A program made the translations under genes and the position numbers. A stretch of 64,000 nucleotides of DNA from Azolla caroliniana (lineage: Eukaryota > Plantae > Polypodiophyta), in assembly GCA_043228905.1 (NCBI GenBank), contig JBHGNT010000007.1, positions 11,036,001 through 11,100,000 of the forward strand. The letters are read 5' to 3'. The notes beneath the pieces were generated by a model that made no database searches, had not been told where the DNA came from, and saw only the letters and a program-made list of their open reading frames with translations. Shown piece by piece: positions 6,296 to 39,068 of this stretch (its first letter is position 1; the number at the start of each line of letters is the position of its first letter).

Positions 6296-9200
6296 GGGAA
6301 CAAGTGCTGGAGACAACGTATCATATCCACCAAAAGCTTGGAACTGAGGTTATCCTTGAATAGATTTGGCAAGTTAGATGGTTTTACAATCTGTACAATA
6401 TAAATTGAGATCATAAGTTAATTTTGCTTTCTAGTAGACTATAATAAACAAGACAAGTTGACATCAAAACACATGCAACTATTTCTGAAACATACAAACC
6501 TTTAAAATACCAGATTGTTGAACCGGACTACTGGAAAAGCTTTTCCAAGCAGCTTCAAATTCATAAAATGACCTTGGTGCTTCGACCACAGTGTGTGTAG
6601 AGACACGCACAGCAGAAGCCTGAGCTACGGCAGCTTGTAAAGTATCCATTTTCTCCGATAGCTAATTTAAAATTATACCCCATCAGAATGTCAGCTTTAA
6701 AATCTTGGTACTTTAATTAGGTTGTATCTTCTGCTATAATATCCAACTGTTAACTTCATCTTAGAGATGAACTTGAGCAATCAGAAGGTGGTGTAAAATT
6801 AGAGACAGGGGCTTATCAGCATCCTCAAAGGCCAAATGTGGCCTATGGCAATTAGGGAGCAAGAAACATATATTACCATCTCTAGAAGATCATGATGACC
6901 TATTAGATCTGATCAATGAATAACATCATTTATGGTCACAGACCAAGGCAAGCAACGAAAGCAAAAAACGATAAACCAATCTAAATTCGAAAGAGAAGAA
7001 GCTTTAAGAAAGACAACTGATATTAATCAGAATCAGAATGCTTTATTGACAATAAACAGGCCTAGGCACAATGGGTCTAATCAACCTAATACAACTATGA
7101 CATAATCTTGAATTACCTGTACATGGCTTTTTATCCGGATTCTGATGTGCAATTAAAAAAAATCTAAGCTTGCATTTGTAGATTATTAGCCTCATTGGCT
7201 TAATTACCAGAATCTCAATACCTGTTGTGATACTAATGGTTTTTTGGAAATATATCGATGAGATTCATCTCTTGATAATGCATCCTTCTGATCACTGCTA
7301 TCTGGTATATCTTTACATTCAGCACCAGTGGTTTCCTCTCTTTTTATTTCTTCAATAGGAACTGGATGCTTTTTTTCTATATGCTTCATATCTGTTATCT
7401 GCATAAAATATATTTTTTAAGTTCGGATCCTTTCAATTTGTCAGTTAGAACCTACATATACAATTCCAAATTACCTCCCAATTAATCCCTATGTTGTACC
7501 ATTATATGACACAAAACCATCCATACAGATACTAAGGGCAATATTAAGAACAGGGAACAACTAACAATATGTTTCTTAATCTACAATTGTATAAAACAAG
7601 CAAAATCTACTATATTTAGATATGATATTGAGACCCAGAATGGGCATTTGCATGTGTTGGAAATACATTTGAATCAAATACATGCTGGATTTTACAGACA
7701 TCAAAACATTTCCTGCCAATCTCCGGGATTTCATGCCTTAAGAACATCAATGGCTCAGATTTTCATTTTGGGTGTGATTTGCTATAAAGGACAACTGCTG
7801 CCATAGTGGACCCATTCTTGGAAGACAGATGGGTGTCTAATAATTATGTAACTCATAACCTTGAAGATTAATTCAATCTGGCTATAGAAATGAAATTCAG
7901 ACAATAATAATGGGTGTCTGTAATAATTATGTAAGGTTCATTCAAACAAAGGTATCATATAATTTTAATTTACTAATAGTTTGCTAAAAGAAAAGCATCA
8001 TAGAATCTGGCAAGCATTAAAAGTTGTCATCAAGATGATTTAATAATTGAATGCATGAGAAATGGCTTTTTGCCATGAAAACTTTCACAACTCTCGGATC
8101 ATGACTCTCTTTCCATGCATTGGCAGCTTGATCAGTTTACATATACCATTCTGAAATCACTGATCTACAATCCTTAACCGTTAATTCCTGCACTCATCTC
8201 CATCAACTAGGTATTTGTTACAGGCATGACCATAATTTACCCCATGGTAGTTTGTACCATAGTATTCCACACGCGAGGATAAAAGTGTGAGGGTTAACCG
8301 AGGGTGTCAAGAATTGAGGATTACTTTTAATCCTAGGAATTGAGACAACCCATAAGGCCCAAGTGTGAACTTGCCTTGGAGCTTTAGGTCTAGCTATAAA
8401 TATGAGACCTAGATACCCTCATTACACACATTATTTGACAACGTCGAGATTGTGACCTTGTGGTGCACAAACTCTTGTGGCTGGCGCATGCCAATACCAG
8501 GTACAACTCAATGTCATGGGGTGACTAGGGTTAGTCTCGATCCCTTCACTCAGGGGTGGTCAGGTGGATAGGCACCCTTATTTCTCTCTCTTCCTCTTTA
8601 TTATCTATTATTTAATTCCTTGTTTTATGCTTACATTAGAAATAATCTCTAACAGCATTATAGGCATGCATGAGCACCATGAGGAACATGACACAGTCGC
8701 ACTTGTTCCCATCTAAACACGAAAGGCTTGAAGTGAGTAGTCCCAAACATAATGAGATCATATCTCTTATTGGTGTTCCTCATGTTAGTTGTGTGTTATG
8801 ATTTTGTACATTTCTTTCTTACTGACTTTATCTCCATTTTGATTGTCCCATCTTCCATAGATGCGTGAGAAGTAGCAGAATCGAACGTGGTAGGCAGGAA
8901 GGTAGCATCAGAGAGAGCTCATAAATACATAACACATGCAGAAAATGTCATAAAAAGGGCATTGCATTTAAAAGACCTTCTTGCACATTTCTTTTACTGT
9001 TGCATACTGCTCTTTGAGAAGTAGCAGAATCGAAAGTGGTAGGCAGGAAGGTAGCATCAGAGAGAGCTCATAAATACATAACACATGCAGAAAATGAAGG
9101 GCATTGCATTTAAAAGACCTTCTTGCACATTTCTTTTACTGTTGCATACTGCTCTTTGAGTTCCTTGTTGTCTGGCTCTAATCGCAATGCGAATTCAGCA

Positions 9201-15185: not shown

Positions 15186-15939
15186 TGTCGTGCCTTTCGG
15201 CTCCGGATCGTTGCGTGAGTCGGGTGGGAACCACTGAGGTTTTGGACTAGGAGAAAAGAAAATTCTAAGGCAATGAAGAATATGAAATATGTTGTAAGAA
15301 AGAAACATATGAAAAACTCTTGAATCCCACGAGTATAGTGTGTATTAGTGAGTACTCAAATTAAGAGAGAAAAATAGTTAGCAAATTCGTGAATCCCACA
15401 ATAATATTATATTAATCCACCCTTATAAAATAAGCAACAACCACTACGTATCTTTCTCTCTCCCTTATATAGTGTTGGAAGAGTCTAAGTTTCTCACATG
15501 CAAGCATCATACTTTTCCTAACTTTAGTTTTCATGCACGCTGCATTTGCATGATTAGCTTTCCTAACTTTAGTTTTCATGCACGCTGCATTTGCATGATT
15601 AGCTTTCCTAACTTTAGTTTTCATGCACACTGCATGTGCATGATTAGCTTTCTATCCCATCTTTTTCTTTTTTTAACTCGAGTGTGTATGCATAAATAAC
15701 TTGTTGTACCATGCATATCTAGGATATTTACATGGGATAAAGTTTACTATAGCTTTAAAATTTATAATATGCTAGTATAGTGGTAAGGTTGGGGTTTGTC
15801 TACGTGGAGGTACAGGGTTCGAACCTTGCCCTATGCACATAATAAATATTTTTAGTATTTAATTTAATTTATTATACGTACTTTAAATCGGATATAGTAT
15901 TTTACATATTTCACGTAGTGTGTGATTCACACTACGACA
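15186..15939 (-). mobile_element. Solo LTR with 45-bp tandem repeats and a tRNA-like cassette
   Basis: TGTCGT...ACGACA termini; 4-bp TSD ACGT whose removal restores the MITE sequence; CTATATAAG on the minus strand at about 15464-15472; three 45-bp repeats at 15513-15650. Confidence 0.75.
15773..15825 (+). promoter_or_regulatory. tRNA-like Pol III A-box/B-box cassette
   Basis: A-box TAGTATAGTGG (15773), B-box GGTTCGAACC (15816), 43-bp spacing, T5 run at about 15849. Confidence 0.55.
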
Positions 15940-16797: not shown

Positions 16798-17655
16798 ACA
16801 AAAGATAGATTTTTGAGAGACAATAGAATACTCAAGAGGATGTATGTTACAAAGGAGACTAATCGACCTAATTACAAAGTAGGAGGAGAGTGCTTAATAT
16901 AGACACTCTCTCTCTTCATTAACTACCGAAACTCATGGGTCACGGGGAATGTGAAAACTCATTAGTTATGTGTCACAGAATATGAGTCTATGACACATAG
17001 TTAATGTGTAGAAGATAAGAGTGGTGACTTTTGACCTTTGAGTGCACACTCTCAAGGGTGTGTTCACACACTAGACTTTTGTTAGCTTGATTCTCAACAC
17101 ACCCCCTCAAGTTCAACTTTGGTCGGCTACTTCGGTTGATGTTCGCTTCGGGTCGTATTCGGTTCGGACGGTATCCGGTACATCCAGCTCGTATCCGGTT
17201 TTCGCTTGTACTCCCCCTCAAGCTTGGCAAGTCAAGGACCGTCAATCCAAGGTCTGACAAGAATTGCCAAAGTTTGTCGGCTCCTAGGGCTTTGGTGAAT
17301 ATGTCGGTTGTCTGAAGATTCGTAGTGATATGTTGAAGGTCGACATCACCAACCTGAACACGCTCTCGAATGAAGTGATAGCGCACTTCGATATGCTTTG
17401 TGCATGCGTGGAACACTAGGTTCCGAGCCAGATAAATACTGCTCATGTTGTCGCAGTAAAGGAGAATCAAATCTTTGATGGGAACACCCAAATCCTTTAA
17501 TATCCTCTTGAGCCATACGGCTTACATGCAGCCACCATCGTGCCCCTGTATTTGTCAGGAACAGTACTAAGACAGAGAAGGAATTAGTACTAAAAGAAGT
17601 ATTAGTACTAAGAGAGGTGAAGAACTCTCGAGAGAAGGAAAGAGTGAGTGAGAGG

Positions 17656-17753
<98 letters not shown>

Positions 17754-17881
17754 TGATAAGAAAAGATATATATTATGTGAAGAAACTGTACAGTAGCTAG
17801 GAGGCTTAAGATTGGCGTTGAACCGATTTGGTTTGAAATAATGCCTTGTGCCTCCTTTTATAGTGTTCTAAGGAATACTCC

Positions 17882-17901
17882 TGAAGTTTCTAGAATGTTC
17901 C
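17882..17901. promoter_or_regulatory. Heat-shock element (four perfect alternating nGAAn units) in chromovirus LTR U3
   Basis: tGAAg-tTTCt-aGAAt-gTTCc; also at 23107-23126 and 34209-34228, and with one unit mutated at 38329-38348; about 20 bp upstream of the LTR TATAAAA. Confidence 0.7.
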
Positions 17902-17976
17902 AGAGAAATCTGGAATATATATCAATTTTCTATAATAAAATATAAATGAAAATAATATTTTATGTATTACAATGTA

Positions 17977-18030
17977 TAGTCTAATGGTCAAGAGCTCGAC
18001 CCATGTAGTATAAGGTCATGGGTTCGAGTC
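17977..18030 (+). promoter_or_regulatory. tRNA-like Pol III A-box/B-box cassette in chromovirus LTR (antisense to the element)
   Basis: A-box TAGTCTAATGG (17977), B-box GGTTCGAGTC (18021), 44-bp spacing; also at 28938-28991 (+) and about 34080-34133 (-). Confidence 0.6.
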
Positions 18031-18038
18031 TTACCATA

Positions 18039-21000
18039 TCATGACACTATCCCCCCTTTAAAACGACGAGTGTAACGAGTCGTTTTGGATTGAGGACCCG
18101 GTTTGTCTGGATATTGACGATGGAAGTCTTCAAGAAGAGCACGAGCATTGGTGACATTCTCTATCGGTTCCCAAGTACGCTCGCTGGGACTATATCCTAG
18201 CCAGTCGACTAGATAGTAGAGCTTGTTGCGAACAAGCTTGGAATCAAGGATGGCGGCAACCTTGTACTCAGGTCCATCTTCAAGCTCAATCGGAGGTGGA
18301 GGCTGTGTAATACGTTCTGGGATGGTGCTTTCTTGATAGGGTTCGAGGAGAGAACTATGAAACACCGGATGTATCCGAAGTTGTGGAGGTAGATCAAGTC
18401 GAAAAGCGACATCATTAATCTTTCCGATAATACGGAAAGGACCTAATCGCCGATAATCCAACTTCTCGCATGGGCGAGTAGTCTTGATGTGTCGTCGGAG
18501 TAGCCATACCCGATCTCCAATGTTAAAACTAGATGGGAGTCGATGACGATCCGCATAAACCTTGTGTGTTTGTTGAGCTTGTTGGAGATGAGTAGATAAA
18601 TCCGCTTGTATCTTGCGTAACCTCTCCAAATGATCCTCTGCGCAAGGATTTGTGGACACCTCTGGGGTTTCAAGTACACACCACCGGGGGTGACATCCCA
18701 TATAAGCATAAAATGGCGTAACTTTCGTGGATGCGTGGATAGAGTTGTTATAGGCAAATTCGGCGAAGTGGAGAATATCTGCCCAGTCATCCTGATGATA
18801 ACTGAGAAAGCACCGCAGATACTGCTCCAGCATTTAATAGGTTCGTTCGGCTTGGCCGTCGGTTTGTGGGTGGTAGCCGGAGGAGAGGTTACAAGTGACC
18901 TTGAGCATGTTAAAAAGGTGCTTCCAGAATTTTGACACGAACTGGGGTCCACGGTCGTTGATGATACTATCGGGATGTCCATGATGTCGACATACTTCAC
19001 GCATGACAATTTCGGCAGTGTCTTCACTGGAGATCTCCTTAGTACATGGCAAGAAATGAGCCATCTTCGTATATCGATCGACCACCGTTAGAATCGCATT
19101 GAACCCCTTAGAGATTGGAAGATCTGTGATGAAGTCTAGAGCAATGGATTGCCACGGCTTGCTTGGAATTGGTAATGGTTCTAATAAACCATATGGATGA
19201 TGCCTTGGCATTTTCGCTCTGCAGCATGTATCACAAGTCCGAACAAAATCCTCGACAAATTGTCGCATACAGGGCCACCAGAATGATCGTTGTACTAAAT
19301 GTAGTGTTTTAGTACTACCAAAATGCCCAGTTGTATATGTGTCATGACAGTTTTGTACTACTTGAAGGCGGCAAGAACCATTAGGAACATACAAAAGTTC
19401 TTTAAAGAAGAGTAATCCACCATGGTATTTGAATTGCTGATAGTCCGTACCTGGTGGTTGCGACTGTGAACACGACGCTCGAGAGGGATCAATTTGTGCT
19501 AGTATAGCTTGGGCGAATGCATCTGTCTTCAAGTCTTCGTGTATGGTATCGATAATGCGGGAATCCATGGGCATGTCAAAGATCTTTGTTGCTTGTAGTC
19601 GTGCCAGTCCCAAGATGACTTGTTTTTGGTTATCGAAAGCTGGCTCGCCGGGACGGGGTGCTAGATACGAACGCCGTGATAATGCATATGCCTTCCCTTG
19701 GTGCTTCCCCGGACGATATGTAATTTTGAAGTCGAAACGCGTGAGGAAGTGGGCCCACCGAGCTTGACGTCGATTCAACACACGAGCATCCTGAAAGTAG
19801 GCAAGGTTCTTGTGGTCACTAAATACGGTGACCGGATGAGAAGATCCCTCCAGAAAATGCCTCCATTGCATAAAAGAATCCACTATTGCCAATAGCTCCT
19901 TATCATGAATTTCGTAGTTGATTTCGGCGGTGTCAAACTTGCGTGAGTGAAAAGACACAAGATGTAGCTTCTCATCATTCCCCTATTGTGACAGAATGCT
20001 CCCCAATGCAAAATCCGATGCGTCAGCTTCGATAATAAATGGTTTTTCCGGATCGACATGAGCTAGAATTGGAGCCGATGTAAATGCCTTTTTAAGACTC
20101 TCGAAAGCCACGTCCGTTTCTTCAGACCAAATGGACGGTTGTCCCTTCCTGGTAAGTTGTGTGAGAGGTAGAACGATCTTTGAGTAATCTTGTATGAACT
20201 TCCGGTAAAAATTGGCAAAGCCTAGGAAGCATTGCACATCCCGCATCGAACGTGGAGTCTACCATTCTACCACCGTTTTGACCTTAGCTGGGTCCATGGA
20301 GATGCCTTCTGACGAAATGATGTAGCCGAGAAATTCCACTTGGTTGCACCCGAAACTACATTTTTCCAGCTTTGCATATAGACCATGTTCTCGAAGTCGT
20401 TTTAGTACTAATAGTACATGAGAATCATATTCTTCTTGGGTCTTTGAATAAACCAGTAGATCATCCAAATAGATGATCAAACAATCATCCAATAGATCTC
20501 GGAATATATCATTAGCCATGTGCTGGAAGACTGCCAATGCATTAGTGAGGCCGAACGACATGACCGTATACTCGAAGTGCCCATATTTGGTGCGGAACGC
20601 GGTCTTCCATTCATCTCCTGGTTGGATCCGTACGAGGTTATATGCTCCCCGTAAGTCGATCTTCGTGAAGAACCTGGCACCATTGATCCGTTCTAAAAGA
20701 CTTGAGATAAGGGGAAGAGCATACCTATTCCTGATTGTAACCTTATTCAGGCCACGGTAATCTACAACAAGACGGAGCGATCCATCCTTTTTCTTAACGA
20801 AGAAAATGGGCGCGCCGGCTGGAGATTTCAAATGCCGGATGAAACCATTTTCCAAATTCTCCTCTATATAGGCCCGAAGGACTTCTAGCTCGGTTGGTGA
20901 CAAATTGTAGATCGGTCCCCATGGCGGCTCTTTTCCCGGTTGTAAATCGATGGGGTAATCGTACGGTCGATGATGAGGAAGTGTGTTGGCTTGTACTTTA

Positions 21001-21635
21001 TCGAACACATCGACGTAATGATGATACTTCTCGGGAAGTTGAATGGTGGATCCTTCTTTAGTGGTGCTGGAGGGGTTTACTGATATTGCAAAGAGGAACA
21101 TTTCCTCCTTGTGCCCTTCTTTACGCAACTGACGTAGCGAAATGGTTGCCATCTTCTGAGTTAACCCTTGGGTTTGTCGGCACCGGATTTCTCTTGTTCT
21201 CCAATCTATGTCTGGGTTATGTAACTCGAACCACGGTAATCCTAAAACTATGGGATGTTTTGGGATACTAATAATATTAAATGATACTACACATGCTAAG
21301 TTATCTAGGACAATATTAATGGGCTCTGACTCTTCTATGATATTTCTGGAAGCAATGGGACGTCCATCAATGTCTACTACAGAGGTTGGACACTGGAGTT
21401 TTCTTAGGGATATCTTATGAGCTTGAGCAAATTTCTTATCCATAAAGCAAGAGTTAGCTCCGGAATCTAGGAGTGCTAGGACATGTACTGGAGGGGTACT
21501 TTTAGTACTAACTATTACTTGGGCTACAAACACATCACTAACTTGCTTAGAGAGAATGGAACCACTAATGGGCTGCACAGATCTAGGTCTGTCCAACCAA
21601 ACGGCTCCTATTTTGGCTGGACTTAGTCGTTTAAC
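18039..21635 (-). pseudogene. Chromovirus pol (protease, RT, RNase H, integrase, chromodomain), three in-frame stops
   Basis: LLDSGA, IYLDDLL, YEIHDKELLAI, HHCC and core integrase, LGPF and chromodomain (EYKVAAILD...YYLVDWLGYSPSERTWEP); ORFs 20259-21596, 19983-20246, 18834-19958 and 18039-18833 share one frame. Confidence 0.92.
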
Positions 21636-22774
21636 TCTTCTTCTAACTCACTAAGGACATCAAATCTGTTTGCTAGATCTGGGCTATTAGTACTATTAGG
21701 ACTATCAGATATCCCTACTGAAATAGGCTCGGGTTTAGTACAATTAGAACTAGCGACTATTTGGTTTACCTGTCTTCTTGGCCTATGGGGGCAATTTATT
21801 GCAATATGTCCTGGTCCATTGCAGTAAAGACATAGTCGATTTGTACGACATCGCTGCTTTTCTTCTTCGGATAATGGCCCTCGACGACGTGTAGTGTCAA
21901 TCTCCATCGGAGTCGGAGTATTCGTTGGAGGCGCATTATATGACTCCCTCTGAAAAGGTCTTGCTACCACTGAGGTGTAGGTGGGCTCTGATCTTGCCCT
22001 CGGCATTTGTAGTTGTCGTTCCGAACGTCGCTCAAAGAGGCGATTGTCACATCTCACCGCGCGACTGATTGCTTCTGTTAAGGACTTTGGCTCTTCGGGG
22101 AAGGTCAAGAGTAAATCCTTGACGTAATTGCGTAAACCATAACGGAATTGCTCCATCAATGCTTGATCATCCCAAGGGATATCGGCGGCGAGTAGGCGAA
22201 AATCTGCAGCATATGCGGAGGTTGGACGGTCACCTTGGCGTAATCGCCGAATTTTGTTGATTGCGGTCCTGATGCTGTCAGTATCTCCGAAACATGCTTT
22301 AAACTCACCTAGAAACTCTTCAAAATTGTTGAGTAACGGGGATTCCTTTTCTAATAGTGGAGCGAACCATGCCAACGCTGAGCCACTTAACAAAGTGCAT
22401 ACTAAACCCACTCGTGATGCATCGGTGGGATACCGGGAAGGATGCATTTGAATAACTAATCGTACCTGGTTAAGGAACCCTCTAAACTGCGATCGTGTTC
22501 CATCAAACTTCGTGGGAAGGCCAATCTTGGGTTCTTTATGAATCCCTTGTGTTTCGGGCCCTTGTTGTTGCATCGCTACGATGGTTGCTTCGAGTTGTTG
22601 CATGCGTAACGCAAGTTCCCCATGTTGTTGTTGCGTTTGCTGCTTTTCTAAGGAGATTTGCTGAAGATCCCCCAACAACCGTTGATTTTCTTGTTCCAAA
22701 GCATGGAACTTCTCTTTCAAGCATTGAAATTCCGAGAAAACAGATTGATATTCTTCAGCGCTAACAGTGGCCAT
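21623..22774 (-). CDS. Chromovirus Gag (coiled coil, capsid, CCHC knuckle), intact, 383 aa
   Basis: KFDGTRSQFRGF, LRQG, PTPMEID and CLYCNGPGHIAINC motifs. Confidence 0.9.
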   Translation of the reverse strand: MATVSAEEYQSVFSEFQCLKEKFHALEQENQRLLGDLQQISLEKQQTQQQHGELALRMQQLEATIVAMQQQGPETQGIHKEPKIGLPTKFDGTRSQFRGFLNQVRLVIQMHPSRYPTDASRVGLVCTLLSGSALAWFAPLLEKESPLLNNFEEFLGEFKACFGDTDSIRTAINKIRRLRQGDRPTSAYAADFRLLAADIPWDDQALMEQFRYGLRNYVKDLLLTFPEEPKSLTEAISRAVRCDNRLFERRSERQLQMPRARSEPTYTSVVARPFQRESYNAPPTNTPTPMEIDTTRRRGPLSEEEKQRCRTNRLCLYCNGPGHIAINCPHRPRRQVNQIVASSNCTKPEPISVGISDSPNSTNSPDLANRFDVLSELEEELND

Positions 22775-22935
22775 GGGATGAAAGAAAAGAGGAATAAGAG
22801 ATTAGTAGGAAATGAGAGAGACAGAAGGTAGGAAAATCGGTTCAAACTGTCAGGAACAGTACTAAGACAGAGAAGGAATTAGTACTAAAAGAAGTATTAG
22901 TACTAAGAGAGGTGAAGAACTCTCGAGAGAAGGAA

Positions 22936-22978
<43 letters not shown>

Positions 22979-23270
22979 TGATAAGAAAAGATATATATTA
23001 TGTGAAGAAACTGTACAGTAGCTCGGAGGCTTAAGACTGGCGTTGAACCGATTTGGTTCGAAATAATGCCTTGTGCCTCCTTTTATAGTGTTCTAAGGAA
23101 TACTCCTGAAGTTTCTAGAATGTTCCAGAGAAATCTGGAATATACATCAATTTTCTATAATAAAACATAAATGAAAATAATATTCTATGTATTACAATGT
23201 ATAGTCTGTTGGGATTTACGGTCCCTCCGGATGGGATGTCCGGAGATGGATGACGGCAAGCCCGGTTGCG

Positions 23271-23524
23271 GTTACGGAACCGGAGGATGAAGAGTACCCG
23301 GCTACGGAACCGGATGACGAAGACCCGGCTATGGAGCCGGATGATGAAGATCCCGGCTACGGAGCCGGATGATGAAGATCCCGGCTACGGAGCCGGATGA
23401 TGAAGATCCCGGCTACGGAGCCGGATGATGAAGATCCCGGCTACGGAGCCGGATGATGAAGATCCCGGTTACGGAGCCGGATGATGAAGACCCCGGTTAC
23501 GGAGCCGGATGACGAATGTACCCG
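23271..23524 (+). repeat. 27-30 bp tandem array in Copia A U3 (9 units; 10 units at about 28180-28460)
   Basis: Consensus GCTACGGAGCCGGATGATGAAGATCCCG. Confidence 0.92.
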
Positions 23525-24031
23525 GAGAGAGAGATCCGGATGCGGGGACATATTTGTGAATATGTTTGCCAAGGGCCCTTGAGGCTATATTTGTAAATAG
23601 CCCGAAAGTCATATGTGTATAAATATGACTTAGGGCAAACTGTTTATTGTGCTGTAAGTTGTTGCTCATTTTCTGTTCTCACTTAGAGAGAGTGAAGAGA
23701 GCCTCCGAGAGAGAGAGAGAGAGAAAGACGAAGAGGTCGTTGCCTCTGTGTAATACCGCCGCCTGTGGCGAGGACAGCGAGCTCAAGGTCGTTGCCTTGC
23801 AGCTCGCCATTGTATATTTCTTTGTGCATAGTTTTGGTTTGGAGTCTTGCACTCCCGTGGTTTTTTCCCGTATAGGGTTTTCCACGTTAATCCCTGTGTC
23901 ATCGTGTCTCTCTCAGTGTTTCCTATTTTCTGCTGCATTGATTCGCGACTACTCGGTTGTGGCCGAGTGGTGAAGGTTAATCGGAGCATCGATTCGCAAC
24001 AAGTGGTATCAGAGCGACGGTAACACAGAAA

Positions 24032-27000
24032 ATGGAAGGCGGCGGTAGTGGGCCTCCGGGTATGATGGTGCTGAATGCGCAGAACTACGCCGACTGGAAG
24101 ATCAAGATGGAAGATCTTCTAATTGTTCGGGACCTGTACGAACCGATTGACAGGTCGGAAATACCGAAGGGAGTACTTGAGTCAGAATGGAAGCTTTTGA
24201 ACCGGAAAGCCGTAGCGACGATCCGGCAATATGTTGATGTAAGTGTCCTGCAACATGTGGCGAACGATACGAACGCCTATGAGATGTGGCGGAGGCTGTC
24301 CGGACTGTATGAGAGGAAGAATGCGCTGAACCGGACCTCCCTGATGAGGAAGATAGTGAATCTTAAGTACCGGGACGGCGAGAGCATGGTCGAACACGTA
24401 AGCACGTTCATGGGATTCGTGAACCAGCTTGCGGCGATCAAGTTCCCGTTGGAGGATGCAATGCAAGCCATCATTCTGATGTGTACATTGCCGGAAAGCT
24501 GGGAGAACTTGGTGGTGACCCTCAGCACCTCCTGCACCGAAGATAACTTGTCTCTACAAACGGTAAAGACAAGTATTTTGAATGAAGAAGCGCGTCGGAG
24601 AGATAAAGAACCGGCCTCCGACACGAAGGCGCTGCTTACCGAATCGGAACGGGGAAGACAATGGAACCGGAGTCCGCAAAGACGGGAGAAGTCGGGGACC
24701 CGGTCGCAGTCAAGAGGAAGGCCCACATGCTTCCACTGTGGGAAGCCGGGGCACTTCCGAAAGAATTGTCGGCATTACCGAAAAGACAACGGAGCCGTCG
24801 ACACCGATTTGAAGAAGTCACCGGAGAGAAACGGTGCATACCGGGGAGCCACGGACCGGAGAGGTTCGGATCGGCGAGGGCAGGACCGGAAAGGAACAAC
24901 GGCACTTGCGGCAAGTGAGGAAGAAATCATGCTCATCACCGAAGAAGGTGAACTAAACGTTGCCGGCGATGAGACGACCTGGGTGGTCGATTCCGGAGCA
25001 TCGTTCCACCTGACCCCGGAGAGAAGATACTTCTCATCCTACACAGCCGGTGAGCATGGCTGTGTCCGGATGGGAAATGAAGGTACGTGCCGGATTGCCG
25101 GCATAGGAGACGTGTGGCTGATGACATCAACCGGATGCAAAATGCTGCTGAAGGATGTCCGACACGTTCCGGAGGTTCGACTGAATCTGATTTCGGCCGG
25201 AAGGCTAGACGATGAAGGCTACACAGGTAGCATCCGGAACGGCGAAATGAAGTTCAGCAAGGGGAGCTTGATAGTGGCTCGGGCCCGGAAGGTCAACACA
25301 CTGTACCTGATGAATTCCCGGCTATGTCCGGAGGAGCTGAACGTGGCAGCCGACACTGCCGGTGAGCTGTGGCACAAGAGACTGTGCCACATGAGTGAGA
25401 AGGGGATGAAGAGGCTTGCAGAAGACAACCTTATTCCAGTGAAGCATGTGCACCTGGAGAAGTGCACCGACTGCCTGGCCGGTAAGCAAAACCGGACCTC
25501 CTTCCACTCAAGGCCACCGACGAGACGTAGTGCACCATTGGAGCTGGTGCACACTGACGTGTGTCAAGTAGAAACGAAGTCACATGGCGGAGCCCAGTAC
25601 TTCGTAACATTCATAGATGATCACAGCCGGAAGCTGTGGACGGCACCGTTGAAGACAAAGGACCAAGTGTTGGGCGTCTTCAAAGAACTCCACGCGAGAG
25701 TGGAAAGGGAATCCGGCAAGAAGCTGAAAGCGATACGAGCGGATAACGGAGGGGAATACCGGGGGCAGTTCCAGGAGTACTGTCGCTCGAAGGGAATCCG
25801 ACTCGAGTTTACTGTGCCGAAGACGCCGGAACTGAACGGGCTAGCCGAGAGGATGAACCGGACCATAATGGAGAGGGTCCGGAGTATGCTGGTGCATGCG
25901 AAATTACCCAAGGGGTTCTGGGCTGAGGCAATGTCGACGGCGACATACGTGATAAACAGATCACCCTCAGTACCTTTGGACGGAGACACGCCGCAAAAAG
26001 TGTGGACCGGTAAGGAAGTGTCCTACCGGCATCTGAAGGTGTTCGGATGTCTCGCATATGTGCATGTGGCAAAGGACCGGAGAGGAAAGCTAGATCCAAA
26101 GACCCGGCCATGCATATTCCTCGGTTACGGCGACGACGAGTTCGGCTACCGAGTATGGGACCCGGTCGACAAGAAGATATTCAGGAGTCGAGATATCATC
26201 TTCATGGAGGACAAGACACTCGCCGACTGGGAGTCGGAGAAGAAGATGAAGAGCTCCAAGTCGACCGGTGAGAATCAACTCTACGAGGAGCAGTCCCGAC
26301 CGGCAAGGGACCGGTTAACACTCGAAGATCCGGCCGAAGACGGTGAAGAAACAGAACCGGCCGAAGAAGATGAAAATGATACCGGAACCGGCCCCGATCC
26401 CGAAATGGATTCGGATGAAGAAGAATCGGAAGAACCGGTTACCGAAGCTCCGGAACGGAGATATCCTCTAAGAGTGAGAAGGGCCCCCCGGAGATTTCCG
26501 GAACCAGAGCACGTGCTACTAACCGACGAGGGGGAGCCGGAGAGCTTTGAAGAAGCAAAGCATGACACCCAGAGCCGCAGGTGGTTGAGTGCCATGCAGG
26601 ACGAGATGGATTCCCTGCATGAGAACCACACATATGAACTTGTGGTGTTGCCGAAAGGAAAGCGGGCACTACGAAACAAGTGGGTGTTCAAGCTGAAACC
26701 GGGAGATGCCGGAAACCCCCCGAGATACAAAGCCAGGATCGTGGTGAAGGGGTTTCAGCAGAAGAAGGGCGTCGACTTCAACGAGATATTTGCCCCGGTA
26801 GTGAAGATGACCTCCATCCGGACGGTGCTGAGCATAGCGGCAAGCATGGACCTCGAGGTAGAACAGATGGACGTGAAGACGGCATTCCTTCACGGTGACC
26901 TCGAAGAAGAGATCTACATGCAGCAACCGGAAGGATTCGAGAAGGAAGGGAAGGAGCACCTGGTATGCCGGTTGAAGAAGAGCCTCTACGGTCTGAAGCA

Positions 27001-28105
27001 GGCTCCCCGGCAATGGTACCGGAAGTTCGACTCCTTCATGACAGACGAAGGGTACCACAAAACGCAGTCCGATCACTGCGTGTTTGTGAAGAAGTTCGAA
27101 GGAGGAGACTTTCTAATACTCCTCCTGTACGTGGACGACATGTTGATCGTCGGACGGGACCAGGTCAAGATACGGATGCTGAAGAAGGCTCTTCACCGAA
27201 CCTTCTCAATGAAGGACCTGGGTCCGGCGAGGCAAATACTAGGGATGCACATCATCCGGGACCGGAAGAAGAAGCAGTTGTGGCTGTCACAGGAGAAGTA
27301 CGTGACAAAGGTACTTCACCGGTTCAACATGTCGGAAGCAAGGCCGGTCGGATCAACCCTCCCGGCAAACTGCAAGTTGTCCAGCAAGCAAAGCCCCAGG
27401 ACAAAGGCTGAGAAAGAGGACATGATGAAAGTACCATATGCCTCTGCCGTCGGAAGCTTGATGTACGCAATGGTGTGTACAAGACCAGACATAGGATACG
27501 CAGTCGGAGTGGTGAGCAGGTACATGAGCAATCCCGGCAAAGAGCACTGGAGCGCGGTCAAGTGGATACTCCGATACCTGAAGGGCACGGCAAACGTGTG
27601 CCTCCGATTCGGCTCCGGTAAGCCCGAACTCGACGGATTCACCGATTCGGATATGTCGGCTGATGCAGATACCAGCCGGTCCACATCAGGGTATGTGATG
27701 ACGTATGCAGGGGGAGCTGTTTCATGGCAGTCGAGGCTGCAGAAGACGGTTGCGTTGTCAACCACGGAGGCGGAGTACATGGCGGCTGTTGAAGCCGGCA
27801 AGGAAATAATATGGATGAAGGACTTCATTAGAGAGCTCGGTATCCGGCAGGAGGAGTACCGACTCTACTGCGACAGTCAGAGTGCCATCCACCTTGCGAA
27901 GAACGCGGCCTATCACTCCCGGACGAAGCACATCCAGCGAAGATATCACTGGATCCGGGAAAGGATAGAAGACCAGGAGTTCGTGCTGACGAAGATCCAC
28001 ACGGACGAGAACGGGTCAGATATGCTGACCAAAGTGCTCACACCCGACAAGCTAGAAGCGTGCCGGAAGAGGGTCGGACTGGAAAGACATCCCATGCCGA
28101 AGTGA
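24032..28105 (+). CDS. Copia A Gag-Pol polyprotein, 1357 aa, uninterrupted
   Basis: [14 protein letters not shown] knuckle, WVVDSGAS protease, HHCC and D,D(35)E integrase, LYVDDML RT, FTDSDMSAD and TKHIQRRYHWIRE RNase H. Confidence 0.96.
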   Translation: MEGGGSGPPGMMVLNAQNYADWKIKMEDLLIVRDLYEPIDRSEIPKGVLESEWKLLNRKAVATIRQYVDVSVLQHVANDTNAYEMWRRLSGLYERKNALNRTSLMRKIVNLKYRDGESMVEHVSTFMGFVNQLAAIKFPLEDAMQAIILMCTLPESWENLVVTLSTSCTEDNLSLQTVKTSILNEEARRRDKEPASDTKALLTESERGRQWNRSPQRREKSGTRSQSRGRPTCFHCGKPGHFRKNCRHYRKDNGAVDTDLKKSPERNGAYRGATDRRGSDRRGQDRKGTTALAASEEEIMLITEEGELNVAGDETTWVVDSGASFHLTPERRYFSSYTAGEHGCVRMGNEGTCRIAGIGDVWLMTSTGCKMLLKDVRHVPEVRLNLISAGRLDDEGYTGSIRNGEMKFSKGSLIVARARKVNTLYLMNSRLCPEELNVAADTAGELWHKRLCHMSEKGMKRLAEDNLIPVKHVHLEKCTDCLAGKQNRTSFHSRPPTRRSAPLELVHTDVCQVETKSHGGAQYFVTFIDDHSRKLWTAPLKTKDQVLGVFKELHARVERESGKKLKAIRADNGGEYRGQFQEYCRSKGIRLEFTVPKTPELNGLAERMNRTIMERVRSMLVHAKLPKGFWAEAMSTATYVINRSPSVPLDGDTPQKVWTGKEVSYRHLKVFGCLAYVHVAKDRRGKLDPKTRPCIFLGYGDDEFGYRVWDPVDKKIFRSRDIIFMEDKTLADWESEKKMKSSKSTGENQLYEEQSRPARDRLTLEDPAEDGEETEPAEEDENDTGTGPDPEMDSDEEESEEPVTEAPERRYPLRVRRAPRRFPEPEHVLLTDEGEPESFEEAKHDTQSRRWLSAMQDEMDSLHENHTYELVVLPKGKRALRNKWVFKLKPGDAGNPPRYKARIVVKGFQQKKGVDFNEIFAPVVKMTSIRTVLSIAASMDLEVEQMDVKTAFLHGDLEEEIYMQQPEGFEKEGKEHLVCRLKKSLYGLKQAPRQWYRKFDSFMTDEGYHKTQSDHCVFVKKFEGGDFLILLLYVDDMLIVGRDQVKIRMLKKALHRTFSMKDLGPARQILGMHIIRDRKKKQLWLSQEKYVTKVLHRFNMSEARPVGSTLPANCKLSSKQSPRTKAEKEDMMKVPYASAVGSLMYAMVCTRPDIGYAVGVVSRYMSNPGKEHWSAVKWILRYLKGTANVCLRFGSGKPELDGFTDSDMSADADTSRSTSGYVMTYAGGAVSWQSRLQKTVALSTTEAEYMAAVEAGKEIIWMKDFIRELGIRQEEYRLYCDSQSAIHLAKNAAYHSRTKHIQRRYHWIRERIEDQEFVLTKIHTDENGSDMLTKVLTPDKLEACRKRVGLERHPMPK

Positions 28106-31100
28106 AGGGGGAGTTTGTTGGGATTTACGGTCCCTCCGGATGGGATGTCCGGAGATGGATGACGGCAAGCCCGGTTGCGGTTACGGAACCGGAGGATGAA
28201 GAGTACCCGGCTACGGAACCGGATGACGAAGACCCGGCTACGGAACCGGATGACGAAGACCCGGCTACGGAGCCGGATGATGAAGACCCCGGTTACGGAG
28301 CCAGATGATGAAGATCCCGGCTACGGAGCCGGATGATGAAGATCCCGGCTACGGAGCCGGATGATGAAGATCCCGGCTACGGAGCCGGATGATGAAGATC
28401 CCGGTTACGGAGCCGGATGATGAAGACCCCGGTTACGGAGCCGGATGACGAATGTACCCGGAGAGAGAGATCCGGATGCGGGGACATATTTGTGAATATG
28501 TTTGCCAAGGGCCCTTGAGGCTATATTTGTAAATAGCCCGAAAGTCATATGTGTATAAATATGACTTAGGGCAAACTGTTTATTGTGCTGTAAGTTGTTG
28601 CTCATTTTCTGTTCTCACTTAGAGAGAGTGAAGAGAGCCTCCGAGAGAGAGAGAGAGAGAAAGACGAAGAGGTCGTTGCCTCTGTGTAATACCGCCGCCT
28701 GTGGCGAGGACAGCGAGCTCAAGGTCGTTGCCTTGCAGCTCGCCATTGTATATTTCTCTGTGCATAGTTTTGGTTTGGAGTCTTGCACTCCCGTGGTTTT
28801 TTCCCGTATAGGGTTTTCCACGTTAATCCCTGTGTCATCGTGTCTCTCTCAGTGTTTCCTATTTTCTGCTGCATTGATTCGCGACTACTCGGTTGTGGCC
28901 GAGTGGTGAAGGTTAATCGGAGCATCGATTCGCAACATAGTCTAATGGTCAAGAGCTCGACCCATGTAGTATAAGGTCATGGGTTCAAGTCTTGGCATAT
29001 CATGACAGTATTCGGCCTCTGTGCTCGAAAGAGCGACGATAGGTTGTTTCTTGCTACTCCAGGACATGGCTCCACTTCCGAGGGAGAAGATGAAACTAGA
29101 GGTTGATCGTCAGTTGGCTTTGTAGCCTACCCAGTCGGCATCTGTGTACCCCTCGAGTTGAATTGGCATGGCTAACTTATAGAGAATGCCATAGTCCATT
29201 GTTCCGCTCACGTATCGTAGCACTCTCTTAGCACAATCCAAATGGATATCTCGTAGCGTTTGCATGAACTGGCTAAGAAGGCCAACCAGATAGCTCAGGT
29301 CACAGGTCGAGTGATCATGAGGTAGATAAGACTACCGATCAGTTGTCAATATGAGTCGGCTCACACTCTGTGGTGCGGGAATTGGCATCTAGTTTGAAGT
29401 TTTGGTCGAGCGTTGCTACAGACTTGCACTCAGTCATCCCAAACTTGTATATCAAGTTGAGAATGTAGTGCCATTGGGAGATCATAATCCCGACTGGAGT
29501 CCGAATTACCTCGATGCCAATGAAGTAGTGGAGCTCTTTCATGTCCATCATCTCGAATTTGTTGGAAAGGAGGGATTTGACCTTGTTGATGTTGACTAGA
29601 TGCTCACCTCCAATGACCAAATCATCCACGTATAGGATGATGATGATCAAACTTTCGGAATTGCTTCTTACATAGAGAGAATTGTCGGATTTTGACATTC
29701 GGAAGTTGATTCGATGAAGATATTGTGTTATCTTCGAGTGCCAAGCACGTGGTGCTTGCTTAAGGCCGTAGAGAGGCTTCTTGAGTCGGCAAATGGCTTT
29801 CGGATGAATGTTGGATTTAAAGCCGGGTGGTTGTATCATGTACACCTCCTCTTCTAATTCGCCTTAAAGAAAAGCGTTCTTGACATCCATCTGGTGGAGG
29901 TGCGATCCTTTCACTGCTGCAAGCGCTATCATGGCTCACACAGTTGTCATCTTTGCCACCGGGGCAAAGGTCTCTTCATAGTCAACGCCCTATGTTTGTG
30001 CGTAGCCCTTTGCTACGAGTCGAGCTTTGTAGCGGTTGACGGAACCGTCGGCATTATACTTCACTTTGTATATCCATTTGCAGCCAATCGCCTTCTTGTG
30101 CGGTGAGTGAGGGACGAGATCCCATGTCTCATTCTTGCTGAGAGCTTGCGTCTCCTTGTTCATCGCTTTGACCCATCGCGGATCTTTAGCGGCTTCGGCA
30201 AAGCTCTTTGGTTCTCGAAATGTTGCCACCTTCATCATAAAGGCATAGTGGTATGCCATATAATCGTTGTAGCTGAATCAGCTAACCGAATTCTTCTCTC
30301 GGGTGGAGTGATGGAGTTTCTCATTTGCTGATGTGAGTGCTTTCTCAACTCTGGGTGACTTCATAAGAGGCACATCAAAGCCATCGAACTCACTATTGAG
30401 TGAATGAGTCGATTTGTTGTTGTCGAAGTATTCGTCTTCATATTTCGGCATTTTGGCCTTCCCTTTGTCCATCTTTGGACTTGGCCGAGATAAGCTTTGG
30501 TTGCTCAGAGGCTCTTGTGGTTCGCTCAATCTGGTTGAGATTGGACTCTCTTCGAGTATTGACCTTAGTTGATCATCGTCTTCTGTGTTGTCGAGGTCGT
30601 TCGTAGATGGTTCGGGAGGAGTCGGCTCGGGTTTGTACCATGATATCGATTCATCAAAGACGACATCCCGACTTACACAAGTCTTCCAAGTAGAGGGGTT
30701 GAAGCACTTGTACCCCTTTTGCTCGAGTGAGTACCCCACGAGGATGCACTTCTCTGATTTTGGGTCAAGCTTCTGCCGCTTCTCATCAGGAATGTGCACG
30801 TATGCAATGGAGCCGAATATCCCTACATGGGATAGATCCAGCTTCTTCTCATAGTATTTCTCGTGTGGGGTGACCTCGTGCACTCCGGATGTTGTGCACC
30901 GGTTCATGAGGTAGACGACGATATTTGTAGCTTCTGCCCAATATGACTTGGGCATATGCTTCTCATTTAGCATGGCCCTTGCTACTTTGAGGATGTGCCT
31001 ATTCTTGCGTTTGGCTACACCTTCTGTTGCGGTGTGTGTCGGCAAGTGAATTCTCGCCAAATTCCTTCTTGTCGAAGGTATGCCGTGAACGCATCGGAGA

Positions 31101-33794: not shown

Positions 33795-34354
33795 TGATAG
33801 GAATACGCTTCTCTAAGCTATGCTCGGCCACAACCGGGACGTCGGATCAATCACAGAGGATGTGGAGAGATGTATCTACACACGAAATAGTAGAGAAGAG
33901 AGTGCACTGGATGTTAACGTGGAAAACCCAAATATAGGAAAAACCACGACAACCCTTAGACTGCAAAATATCACTATATCAAGATTACAACAATGGGGCA
34001 CAGAGACAACGACCTCTTGCTCCCTCGCTTCGCCACCAGGCGGTTACAACGGAGGCAACAACCTGTCATGATATGGCAAGACTCGAACCCATGACCTTAT
34101 GCTACATGGGTCGAGCTCTTGACCATTAGACCATACATTGTAATACGTAGAATATTATTTTCATTTATATTTTATTATAGAAAATTGATGTATATTCCAG
34201 ATTTCTCTGGAACATTCTAGAAACTTCAGGAGTATTCCTCAGAACACTATAAAAGGAGGCACGAGGCATTATTTCGAACCAAATCGGTTCAACGCCAGTC
34301 TTAAGCCTCCTAGCTACTACTGTACATTCTCTTCACATAATATATATATTTTCT

Positions 34355-34393
<39 letters not shown>

Positions 34394-37300
34394 CCTCTCA
34401 CTCACTCTTTCCTTCTCTCGAGAGTTCTCCACCTCTCTTAGTACTAATACTTCTTTTAGTACTAATTCCTTCTCTATCTTAGTATTGTTCCTGACAGTTT
34501 GAACCGATTTTTGGTCGATCTTCCTTTCCTCCTTTTCCTTTTATCTTCTTATTAATCCTCTTATCCTCCCTAGTAAAATGGAAACTGTTAGCGCTCAGGA
34601 ATACCAATCTGTTTTCTCGGAGCTCTAGTGCTTAAAAGAGAAATTTGTAGCACTAGAACAAGAAAATCATCGCTTGTTGGGGGATCTTCAACAAATAGCG
34701 TTGGAAAAACAACAACAACACGGGGAGCTGACACTACGTGTACAACAACTCGAAGTGACTATCATATCATTACAACAACAAGGATCAAGCACTCAAGGGA
34801 TTCACAAAGAACCCAAGATCGGTCTTCCTGCAAAATTTGATGGGACCCGATCACAGTTTAGAGGGTTTTTGAATCAGGTACGTTTAGTGATACAAATGCA
34901 TCCTTCTCGATATCCCACCGATGCATCATGAGTGGGACTAGTAGGCACTCTCCTTAGTGGCTCAGCGTTAGCATGGTTTGCTCCATTGTTGGAAAAGGAT
35001 TCTCCATTATTAAACAGTTTTGAAGAATTTGTAAGTGAGTTTAAGGCCTGTTTTGGAGATACTGACAGCATAAGGACTGCAATCAACAAAATCTGGCGAT
35101 TACGCCAAGGTGATTGTCTAGCTTCCGCATACGCTGCAGATTTCTGCCTACTCGCTGCCGATATCCCTTGGGATGATCACGCATTGATGGAGCAATTCCG
35201 TTATGGCTTACGCAACGATGTCAAGGATTTACTCTTGACCTTCCCCGAAGAGCCAAAGTCATTAACAGAAGCAATTAGTTGCGCGGTGAGATGCAACAAC
35301 CGCCTCTTCGAACGACGTTCGGAACGACAATTCCAGATTCCGAGGGCAAGATCAGAGCCTACCTATGCCTCAGTGGTAGCGAAACCTTTTCCGAGGGAGT
35401 CATATAATGCGCCTCCAGCAAGTACTCCAACTCCGATGGAAATTGACACCACACGTCGTTGTGGACCGCTATCAGAAGAAGAAAAGCAACGATGCCGAGC
35501 AAACCGACTATGTCTTTATTGCGGTGGACCAGGGCATATCGCGGTAAACTGTCCCCATAGGCCAAGAAGGTAGGTAAACCAAATAGTTGCTAGTTCTGAT
35601 TGTACTAAACCCGAGTCTATTTTAGTAGGGATATCTGATAGTCCTAATAGTATTAATAGCCCAAATCTAGCGAACAAATTTGATGTCCTTAGTCAGTTAG
35701 AAGAAGAGTTAAACGACTAAGTCTAGCCAAAATAGGAGTCGTTTGGTTGGACAACCCTAGATCTGTGCAGCCCATTAGTGGTTCCATTCCCTCTAAGCAA
35801 GTTAGCAATGTGTTCGTAGCCCAAGTAACAGTTAGTACTAAAAGTACTCCTCCAGTACATGTCTTAGCACTTCTAGATTCCGGAGCTAATTCTTGCTTCA
35901 TGGATAGGAAATTTGCCCAAGCTCATCAGATATCTCTCAGAAAACTCTCGTGTCCTGCCCTTGTAGTAGTCGTCGATGGTCGTCCCATTGCTTCAGGAAA
36001 TATCATAGAAGAGTCAGAGCCCGTTAATATTGCCCTAGATAATCTAGCATGTGTCATATCATTTAATATAATTAGCATCCCAGAACACCCCATTGTCTTA
36101 GGATTACCATGGTTCGAATTACATAACCCAGACATAGATTGGTGGACAAGAGAAATCCGGCATCGAAAAGCCCGAGGGTCTAGTCATGAAATTGCAACGA
36201 TTTCACTACATAAGTTGCGTGAGGAAGGATACAAGGAAGAAATGTTCCTCTTCGCAATATCAGTAAACCCCTCCAGCACCACTAAAGAGGATTCCACCGT
36301 TCAACTTCCAGAGAAGTATCATCAGTATGCCGATGTGTTTGATAAAGTACAAGCCAGTACGCTTCCTCACCATCGACCATATGATTGCCCCATCGATTTA
36401 CAACCGGGGAAAGAGCCACCTTGGGGACCAATCTACAATTTTTCACCAACCAAACTGGAAGTCCTTCGAGCCTATATAGAGGAGAATTTGGAGAATGGTT
36501 TCATACGACATTCGAAATCTCCAGCCGGTGCACCCATTTTCTTCGTCAAGAAAAAGGATGGCTCACTTCGGCTCGTTGTAGATTACCGTGGCTTGAATAA
36601 GGTTACAATCCGAAATAGGTATGCACTCCCCCTTATCTCAAGTCTTTTAGAACGGATCAATGGTGCCAGGTTCTTCACGAAGATCGACTTACGGGGAGCC
36701 TATAACCTCGTACGGATCCGACCAGGAGATGAATGGAAGACCGCGTTCCGCACCAGATATGGGCACTTCGAGTATACGGTCATGCCGTTCGGCCTCACTA
36801 ATGCGCCAACAGTCTTCCAGCACATGGCAAATGATATTTTCCGAGATCTCTTGGATGTGTGTCTAATCATCTATTTGGATGATCTACTGGTTTACTCGAA
36901 GACCCAAGAAGAGCATGATTCTAATGTACTGTTAGTACTAAAACGACTTCGAGAACATGGTCTCTATGCAAAGCTGGAAAAATGTAGTTTCAGGTGCAAC
37001 CAGGTGGAGTTTCTCGGCTATGTCATTTCGTCAGAAGGCATCTCCATGGACCCAGCTAAGGTCAAAACGGTGGTAGAATGGCAGTTTCCGCGTTTGGTGC
37101 GGGATGTGCAATGCTTTCTAGGCTTTGCCAATTTTTACCGGAAGTTTATAAAGGATTACTCAAAACTCATTTTGCCTCTTACACAACTTACTAGGAAGGG
37201 ACAATCGTTCATTTGGTTTGAAGAAGCGGACATGGCTTTTGAGAATCTTAAACAGGCATTTACATCGGCTCCGATTCTAGCTCACGTTGATCCATAAAAA

Positions 37301-39068
37301 CCATTCATCATCGAAACGGACACATCGGATTTTGCATTGGGAAGCATTCTATCACAACGAGGTAATGATGAAAAGCTACATCCTGTGGCTTTTCACTCAC
37401 ACAAGTTTGACGCCGCCGAAATCAACTACGAAATTCATGATAAAGAGCTATTGGCTATAGTGGACTCTTTTATGCAATGGAGGCATTTTCTAGAGGGATC
37501 TTCTCATCAAGTCACTGTATTCAGTGACCACAAAAACCTCGCCTATTTTCAAGTCGCTCGTGTGTTAAATCGACGTCAAGCTCGGTGGGCCCATTTTCCC
37601 ACGCGTTTCGACTTCAAGATTACATATCGACTTGGGAAACATCAAGGGAAGGCAGATACATTATCACGGCGTTCGTACCTAGCACCGCGTCCCAGCGAGC
37701 CAGCTTTCGATAACCAAAAGCAAGTAATCTTGGGACCGGCACGACTACAAGTAACACAAGTCTTTGGCATGCCCATGGATTCCCACGTTATCGATATCAT
37801 ACATGTGGACCTGAAGACAGATGCTTTCGCCCAAGCTATACTAGCACAAATTGATCCCTCTCGAGCGTCGTGTTCACAGTCGCAACCACCAGGTACGAAC
37901 TATCGGCAATTCAAATACCATGATGGATTACTCTTCTTTAAAGAACTTTTGTATGTTCCTAATGGTTCTTGCCGCCTTCAAGTAGTACAAAACTGTCATG
38001 ACACATATACAACTGGGCATTTTGGTAGTACTAAAACATTAGATTTAGTACAACGATCATTCTGGTGGCCCCGTATGTGACAATTTGTCGAAGATTTTGT
38101 TCGGACTTGTGACACATGCTGCAGAGCGAAAATGCCAAGGCATCATCCATATGGTTTATTAGAACCATTACCAATTCCAAGCAAGCCATGGCAATCCATT
38201 GCTCTAGACTTCATCACAGATCTTCCGGTCTCTAAGGGGTTCAATGCGATTCTAACATTGTAATACATAGAATATTATTTTCATTTATGTTTTATTATAG
38301 AAAATTGATGTATATTCCAGATTTCTCTGGAACATTCTAGAAACTTTAGGAGTATTCCTTAGAACACTATAAAAGGAGGCACGAGGCATTATTTCGAACC
38401 AAATCGGTTCAACGCCAGTCTTAAGCCTCCTAGCTACTACTGTACATTCTCTTCACATAATATATATATTTTCTTATCATCTCTCTTTCTCTCTCTCGAT
38501 CTCTCTCTCCCTCCCTCTCACTCACTGTTTCCTTCTCTCGAGAGTTCTCCACCTATCTTAGTACTAATACTTCTTTTAGCACTAATTCCTTCTCTATCTT
38601 AGTACTGTTCCTGACACAACCTCTTCCTCTCTTGTCCTCTCTCTCTCTCTCTCTGTACACAGTTACGCACAGAATTATCGCGACAACGATAATCACACAC
38701 AACTACTATATCATGTTTGCCCTAGGTCATATTTATACTAATATGACTTTCGGGTTATTTACAAATATAGCCCCAATGGGCTCTCTGGAACATATTTACA
38801 TATATGTCCCCTCCATCCGATGAGAGGTTCTCACTAGGCTTGCAACATCCGGTTCTCACCCTGTCTTCGTTGCCGGGGACTCCACATCCGGTTCTCACCG
38901 GGTCTTCCGTTGCCGGGGACTCCACATCTGGTTCTCATCGGGTCTTCCGTTGCCGGGACTCCACATTCGGTTCTCACCGGGTCTGCAACATCCGGATTCG
39001 GCCTCGACCGAGTTGCTCATCAACATAGTTCTTCTCACTTCCCATCCGGAGGGACCTGTTTCCTAACA
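33795..39068 (-). mobile_element. Solo LTR E (Copia A/B/G-related), split by chromovirus copy 2
   Basis: TGATAGG...CCTAACA termini, TSD ACATC (33790-33794 and 39069-39073); shares CTCGGCCACAACC, ACGTGGAAAACCC and CCGGAGGGACC blocks with the Copia B and G LTRs; repeats of about 37 bp at 38845-38990. Confidence 0.88.
34064..38616 (+). mobile_element. Ty3/Gypsy chromovirus, copy 2, internally deleted
   Basis: 5' LTR 34064-34496, TSD CAACC; gag with stops (34578-35720), pol 35708-38255 with stops; a deletion at about 38255 joins integrase to about nt 72 of the 3' LTR. Confidence 0.93.

Follow-up and report, generated by a model that had tools for sequence, protein, structure and literature searches.

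The long terminal repeats (LTRs) of a family of Tcn1-like chromoviruses begin, at the edge of U3, with a conserved tRNA-gene-type promoter cassette whose A-box and B-box point away from the element. From the pattern of conservation, we assign a probability of roughly 45% to the reading that this cassette is a landing site for TFIIIC and TFIIIB, which would form a portable chromatin barrier ahead of the element's Pol II promoter.

The window, meaning the whole 64 kb stretch of DNA that was analysed, contains two copies of the family (Table 1). Element 1, a minus-strand Ty3/gypsy element, lies in a retrotransposon nest and measures 5719 bp when its nested Copia is subtracted. A chromodomain was recognised at the C-terminus of the integrase (PF00385, E 4e-14), with Y, W and Y at what we take to be the aromatic cage positions. 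Element 1 was inserted in the RNase H coding sequence of a Copia element, and the sister copy, as judged by eye, in a Copia-LTR-like stretch. A deletion in the sister copy took away the 3' end of pol together with the initial 71 nt of the 3' LTR, and with them the cassette of that LTR. The Copia nested in element 1 is young, its LTRs differing at 5 of 791 positions; with target duplications at 23202-23206 and 28938-28942, it puts 5.7 kb between the boxes and the Pol II promoter. The U5 part (17553-17750) contains a GA/TC microsatellite whose length is strongly different among LTR copies, and a short hairpin lies directly upstream of the polypurine tract (PPT) at 18060-18086, with arms that recur in many relatives. 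The family is high-copy, since 2736-6770 contigs per sequencing run matched a 621-bp stretch. Runs with sequences of the family include leaf and plant metagenomes, and the host is likely a non-seed plant. Of two runs presumed to be RNA, X22 gave 3 matching contigs and X23 none, which speaks neither for nor against expression.

The sequence-only reading had proposed that the element needs no tRNA primer. This was borne out: the primer-binding site (PBS) is self-complementary, and no tRNA PBS was found after the 5' LTR. A B-box-like motif in the R region was considered as a second promoter and rejected; it is the self-primer, lacks an A-box and varies in its core.

Table 1. Coordinates of the cassette, its host element and the sister copy in the window.
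Feature	Position	Strand	Basis or remark
A-box TAGTCTAATGG	17977..17987	+	In the 3' LTR (U3), reading antisense to the element; sequence and column conservation
GGTC followed by B-box GGTTCGAGTC (B-box 18021-18030)	18014..18030	+	Fits GTCnnnnGTTCRAnYC
TATA-like motif at 17941 (TATAAAT) and CAA at 17970	17941..17972	+	Not conserved above chance in relatives
First T4 downstream of the B-box of the window copy	18083..18086	+	Position not kept in relatives
3' LTR of element 1	17553..18046	-	494 bp, TG..CA, runs from 18046 to 17553
Pol II TATA in the 3' LTR of element 1	LTR position 184	-	Self-primer about 34 nt past the TATA
PPT preceding the 3' LTR	18047..18061	-	Sequence
gag and pol (protease, RT, RNase H, integrase, chromodomain)	18039..22801	-	Several broken ORFs here; Pfam
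PBS, complementary to the element's own R start	22834..22845	-	Duplex -13.5 kcal/mol; boundaries approximate
5' LTR of element 1, inner part	22848..23206	-	LTR comparison
Nested Copia inside the A-box	23207..28937	+	Its 5-bp target duplication consists of A-box bases 1-5
5' LTR of element 1, outermost 70 bp, with cassette	28938..29007	-	5-bp element TSD matches at both ends
Sister copy	34064..38616	+	5' LTR 34064-34496, cassette on the minus strand; 5-bp TSD intact

The element features fit the Tcn1 clade of chromoviruses, which is known from mosses and clubmosses (PMC6317226, in part), the proteins being near those of Selaginella SM-Tcn1 by eye. Shared with the clade are a chromodomain integrase, self-priming, a 5-bp target-site duplication (TSD), a length of about 5.7 kb and the gag/pol overlap; the PBS type, the TSD and the 5719 bp all fall within the published Tcn1 ranges (self-priming PBS, 5-bp TSD, 5.5-9.4 kb; PMC6317226 supplement, in part). 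The proteins and LTR ends of SM-Tcn1 are visibly close to those of the window element (by eye; PMC2864245 supplement, in part), whereas its U3 has tandem repeats in place of the Pol III cassette (PMC2864245, in part). No A/B cassette was seen by eye in the SM-Tcn1 LTR given in that supplement (in part), and a Pol III cassette is not mentioned in the available text of PMC2864245, where 'polymerase III' has no match, or in that of PMC6317226. Because SM-Tcn1 is without the cassette, it was probably gained inside the Tcn1 lineage, and a SINE or tRNA pseudogene is its likely source. In the same supplement (in part), a stretch after the 5' LTR of SM-Tcn1 appears by eye to be complementary to part of the LTR, and in comparison with the window element both partners of this pairing carry base changes. 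Such a pattern points to self-priming in SM-Tcn1, which PMC2864245 (in part) did not find. A homolog search gave few named matches.

In the 3' LTR of element 1, the A-box and B-box were located where the sequence-only reading had placed them, antisense at the start of U3. On the + strand the A-box starts 44 nt before the B-box, as in tRNA genes whose variable loop is short. The B-box scores 10/10 against GTTCRAnYC and has an A-box upstream at tRNA-like spacing, which supports the proposed type-2 Pol III promoter geometry. An invariant T, five bases ahead of the B-box, also agrees with GTCnnnnGTTCRAnYC, the consensus internal to tRNA genes (PMC3159450, in part). The residual D- and T-arm pairing is present in the window copy (3/4 and 4/5 pairs), and its RNA folds as one long hairpin (z -4.4). 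The cassette is not a tRNA; neither ARAGORN nor Rfam called one on it, in the window or in 16 loci. The upstream TATA and CAA that had been described both exist, but they stand about 5-10 nt closer than in plant tRNA genes, where TATA is at -35 and CAA at -7 to -3 (PMC3082873, in part). Likewise, the cassette does recur at 28938-28991 and 34080-34133, but the three window cassettes are not independent copies, because they belong to the two LTRs of element 1 and to a close sister, which is 96% identical over the first 80 nt of the LTR. On both strands of the 64 kb window, 8 B-box matches were found, 4 of them with an A-box 43-44 nt upstream; three of the paired sites are the chromovirus LTRs, and one is at 15773. 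The A/B pairs of the window exceed chance.

To compare relatives, the best 80 of 167 related loci were taken with a chromodomain query (48-97% identical). All 80 come from one accession series. Low-coverage contigs are decayed single copies. Sixty loci were kept, with PPT, TG and at least 130 nt of LTR present, and 20 were dropped (8 with less than 130 nt of LTR, 12 without PPT and TG). Together with the two window LTRs, the 60 loci formed 30 clusters at 80% identity. The strict test required a B-box of at least 9/10 and YGG 32-33 nt upstream. Column statistics were calculated on 27 clusters, with the three of weak B-box excluded; one locus (L193) was outside the tree. Protein-pattern scans of viral and genomic contig sets gave no relatives, and no outgroup past about 48% identity.

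On the antisense strand, 20 of the 30 clusters passed the strict test, as did 45 of 62 single LTR starts, compared to 0/30 clusters on the sense strand and a mean of 0.07 (maximum 1) in 200 dinucleotide shuffles; these counts overstate independence, because the clusters are related on the tree and come from a single accession series. A B-box of at least 9/10 was present in 27 of 30 clusters, and the ten that failed the strict test included the three with a weak B-box. Mean pairwise identity among the 27 clusters was 0.75 at the consensus positions of the A-box (0.60 for the whole box) and 0.79 for GGTC. The B-box also reached 0.79, a value that is partly circular since these clusters were chosen for a B-box of at least 9/10. 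Identity was 0.38 in the spacer and 0.36 both in the leader and downstream. The boxes were thus better conserved than neighbouring U3 (0.75-0.79 vs 0.36-0.38), as the sequence-only reading required. The alignment was nearly gap-free. The A-B spacing was 43 or 44 nt in 26 of 27 clusters, and the distance from GG to the B-box was 33 in 18 and 32 in 8, with one cluster unassigned. The cassette lies 17-64 nt from the LTR edge, depending on the cluster. G10 of the A-box was retained in only 9/27 clusters.

The C56/R57 dinucleotide of the B-box was counted with boxes anchored without those two positions (n = 62), giving CG 32, CA 26, TG 3 and TC 1. The CpG change that breaks the consensus (TG) was found in 3/62, and the one that keeps it (CA) in 26/62. 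In genomic contigs of two runs, by contrast, the box-breaking C>T was the commoner change, with 4.8% and 6.4% of depth, and G>A was below the 3% listing threshold. Of the two CpG changes in the LTR starts, the box-breaking one is purged and the box-keeping one is tolerated.

When the same filter was applied to 169,224 bp of loci, 35 of its 39 matches were at mapped LTR starts; the other four comprised two from loci that had been excluded over PPT damage, plus two genuine tRNA genes of locus L152. These tRNA genes (Asn-GTT and Thr-AGT, L152:552-906) are intact and lie about 150-250 bp from a truncated element copy, a single case. A sequence profile (R1) built from the 27 clusters matched 63 of 80 loci, always in antisense; 37 of these loci had played no part in training, and 5 were among the 20 dropped loci. 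Tandem duplication of the cassette, partial or whole, was seen in L147, L156, L179 and one contig of run X22. Instead of being confined to a minor subset of copies by passive SINE capture, the cassette is present in most lineages of the family. Spacing, orientation and sequence are kept while the surroundings drift, and on this pattern the boxes are evidently under selection.

The RNA predicted from the cassette fared differently. The sequence-only reading had expected an antisense RNA of about 115 nt ending at 18083-18086; neither its terminator position nor its structure is shared by the relatives. In the 27 clusters, the terminator stands 1 nt to more than 200 nt away, or none is within reach. 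A T4 after the B-box lies within the LTR in 12/27 (null 5.56, p 0.002; AAAA 2). This state is found mostly in two or three clades, the window subfamily not among them, with 6 changes on the tree. The other 15 clusters have their T4 just past the PPT, far off, or not within reach. Within the A-to-B body, T4 occurs in 2/27 (null 9.3), and depletion in the spacer alone was not significant (2 vs 4.7, P 0.10; AAAA alike). Upstream of the A-box, CAA was present in 7/27 clusters (3.8 expected, p 0.067) and YAA in 21/27 (15.7 expected, p 0.017). TATA was at chance level, in 5/27 clusters against 5.2 expected.

The long hairpin was rejected as a conserved feature, with a mean fold z of -0.37 over 27 clusters. 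The cloverleaf was also rejected (49.2% paired vs 47.2% shuffled; 0 pairs by RNAalifold), its covariation being weak (0.251 vs 0.216 shuffled, 14/500 shuffles as high). No single parent tRNA was found: 100 of the 122 matches to the 17-nt GGTC/B-box motif were in ARAGORN-called tRNAs, of many isotypes. Because cloverleaf, hairpin, TATA and terminator position are not conserved, the 115-nt RNA is unsupported as a selected product, and it is at best restricted to the subfamily of the window copy.

The features that TFIIIC reads are kept, and those that an RNA would require vary. For this reason we infer that, given binding, the bound complex probably matters and not its RNA; binding of TFIIIC to the cassette is itself highly probable. 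The outward-facing A/B pair would bind TFIIIC, which would load TFIIIB and perhaps Pol III, and the complex at the U3 edge would form a chromatin barrier fronting the Pol II promoter. The chromodomain integrase would place the element among silenced repeats, where the barrier would keep the 5' LTR promoter open. For moss RLG1, the chromodomain has been proposed to direct insertion to TE islands in heterochromatin (PMC7466625, in part), and in S. pombe a centromeric tDNA barrier works in either orientation and depends on TFIIIC, Pol III and the A box (PMC2040200, in part). The insulator role suggested in the sequence-only reading is plausible. The cassette cannot make genomic RNA because it points away from the element. 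It is divergent from the Pol II TATA and lies 103-207 bp upstream of it in the 15 of 30 clusters with a TATA found. Both window copies are located inside other retroelements, which was counted for the barrier reading. Against it are the retention of G10 in 9/27 clusters and the failure of 10/30 clusters in the strict test. As SM-Tcn1 is without the cassette, Tcn1 elements do not strictly need it. A barrier that works in either orientation leaves the fixed antisense direction unexplained; this direction may avoid collision with Pol II. Moreover, the T4 inside the LTR in 12/27 clusters hints at real transcription units in some clades.

On a rival reading, the cassette is a genuine Pol III gene that serves through its product, a short antisense RNA; this would pair with the element's own RNA at the U3/PPT end and act in copy number control, as an siRNA seed or as a decoy. 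Both boxes are kept, which goes beyond the need of TFIIIC-only sites such as B-box barriers (PMC2040200, in part), and Pol III miRNA cassettes are expressed from the U3 of foamy virus (PMC6950176, in part). The T4 counts (12/27 in the LTR against a null of 5.56, 2/27 in the A-to-B body), the YAA ahead of the A-box (21/27, null 15.7) and the strong hairpin of the window subfamily point the same way. However, the relatives share neither transcript length nor spacer sequence nor structure (z -0.37; RNAalifold 0 pairs), 15/27 clusters have no T4 in the LTR, and transcription from the window 5' LTRs would continue into the flanks for 393 and 96 nt. The T4 state is also clustered on the tree, and the spacer-only depletion was not significant. 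We consider an RNA-producing gene unlikely.

It is quite unlikely that TFIIIC and TFIIIB serve for positioning, by tethering the element to Pol III clusters or by making the LTR a landing pad for the integrase of its own or another clade. A Copia was inserted exactly in the A-box of element 1, and B boxes are integration targets of TRE5-A (PMC3159450, in part), but this is a single insertion. The breaks in 12 interrupted or unmatched loci scatter from -85 to +174 from the A-box, and several of these are divergent LTRs. Furthermore, neither window element has Pol III boxes next to its insertion site, and being a target brings the element no evident benefit.

The motifs might instead be kept for a reason outside Pol III, as a Pol II activator or a signal for reverse transcription or integration, with the likeness to boxes due to ancestry. 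The location at the LTR end, where replication signals sit, and the loss of G10 in most clusters would agree with this. It is made very doubtful by the conserved columns, which track the consensus of tRNA promoters down to the upstream GTC and the choice of G or A allowed at 57, and by the A-B spacing, which is constant although the distance to the LTR edge varies nearly four-fold. Finally, it is highly improbable, and largely refuted, that an old SINE or tRNA pseudogene inserted in the ancestral LTR persists as a passive remnant with no present role: a SINE insertion is the proposed origin of Helenus (PMC10886601, in part) and probably the origin here too, and SM-Tcn1 is without the cassette (PMC2864245, in part), but a relic should erode evenly, whereas the boxes stand at 0.75-0.79 against 0.38 for the spacer among loci with chromodomain regions 48-97% identical, and the CpG change is one-sided.

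The barrier reading was compared with known systems. The TRIMp3 elements Helenus, Ajax and Cassandra are short, non-coding, tRNA-primed TRIMs (Kojima 2024, PMC10886601, in part). Helenus has, as here, tRNA-like LTR sequence that is conserved chiefly around boxes A and B and is not a functional tRNA. In contrast to TRIMp3, the element here is about 5.7 kb long with gag, PR, RT, RH, INT and chromodomain, self-primes and has a Pol II TATA. Pol III is proposed to make the RNA of TRIMp3 elements themselves (shown for Cassandra), whereas the cassette here faces away, being antisense; the three Helenus LTRs examined, including the one from Selaginella, carry theirs in sense. Kojima considered Pol II to be obligatory for autonomous partners and LTR sequence in common with them to be improbable, and stated that 'not a few' Repbase LTRs have tRNA-like parts, which were not analysed there (PMC10886601, in part). 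The tRNA copies at the PBS described in PMC3286476 (in part) are unrelated.

In the S. pombe cen1 tDNA-Ala barrier, A and B boxes act via the bound complex in either orientation (PMC2040200, in part). That barrier consists of true tRNA genes at fixed host loci, whereas the putative barrier here is mobile, non-tRNA and parasite-borne. The nearest autonomous case is the foamy virus, in which Pol III miRNA cassettes form a unit in the U3 of an autonomous LTR element (PMC6950176, in part). The conserved product in foamy virus is a dumbbell RNA with a terminator; the element here is a retrotransposon, in which neither structure nor terminator is kept. No description of such a cassette in an autonomous LTR element was found in the open-access literature; Repbase annotations were outside this scope, so a prior mention is possible.

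A second A/B cassette was observed in the window at 15763-15830 on the + strand, with 43 nt spacing. It scores 27.7 bits (E 1e-7) with the LTR-cassette profile, and a real tRNA-Thr gene scores 13.5 bits, below it. This cassette lies in antisense orientation where a 550-bp candidate solo LTR begins (15290-15839; TG..CA, TATA, flanks matching at 4/5), which sits in a MULE-like element with long inverted repeats. The candidate solo LTR is single-copy in the window and has no match among the 80 loci. A cassette at a candidate solo LTR of another family suggests that capture may have arisen more than once.

With these results, Pol III promoter capture would no longer be confined to non-coding TRIMs and SINEs but would include protein-coding LTR elements. 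A conserved putative TFIIIC site offers a precise and mutable target for asking how chromoviruses stay expressed after insertion in heterochromatin. If the family is very abundant, thousands of Pol III-type sites would be scattered by it, and these could shape chromatin domains and compete for TFIIIC. More broadly, we put forward, tentatively and at somewhat less than even odds, that heterochromatin-targeting retrotransposons carry their own tRNA-gene-type insulator: the chromodomain would send the element to silent chromatin, and the captured Pol III promoter at the LTR edge would open it, carving an open island in the silent chromatin.
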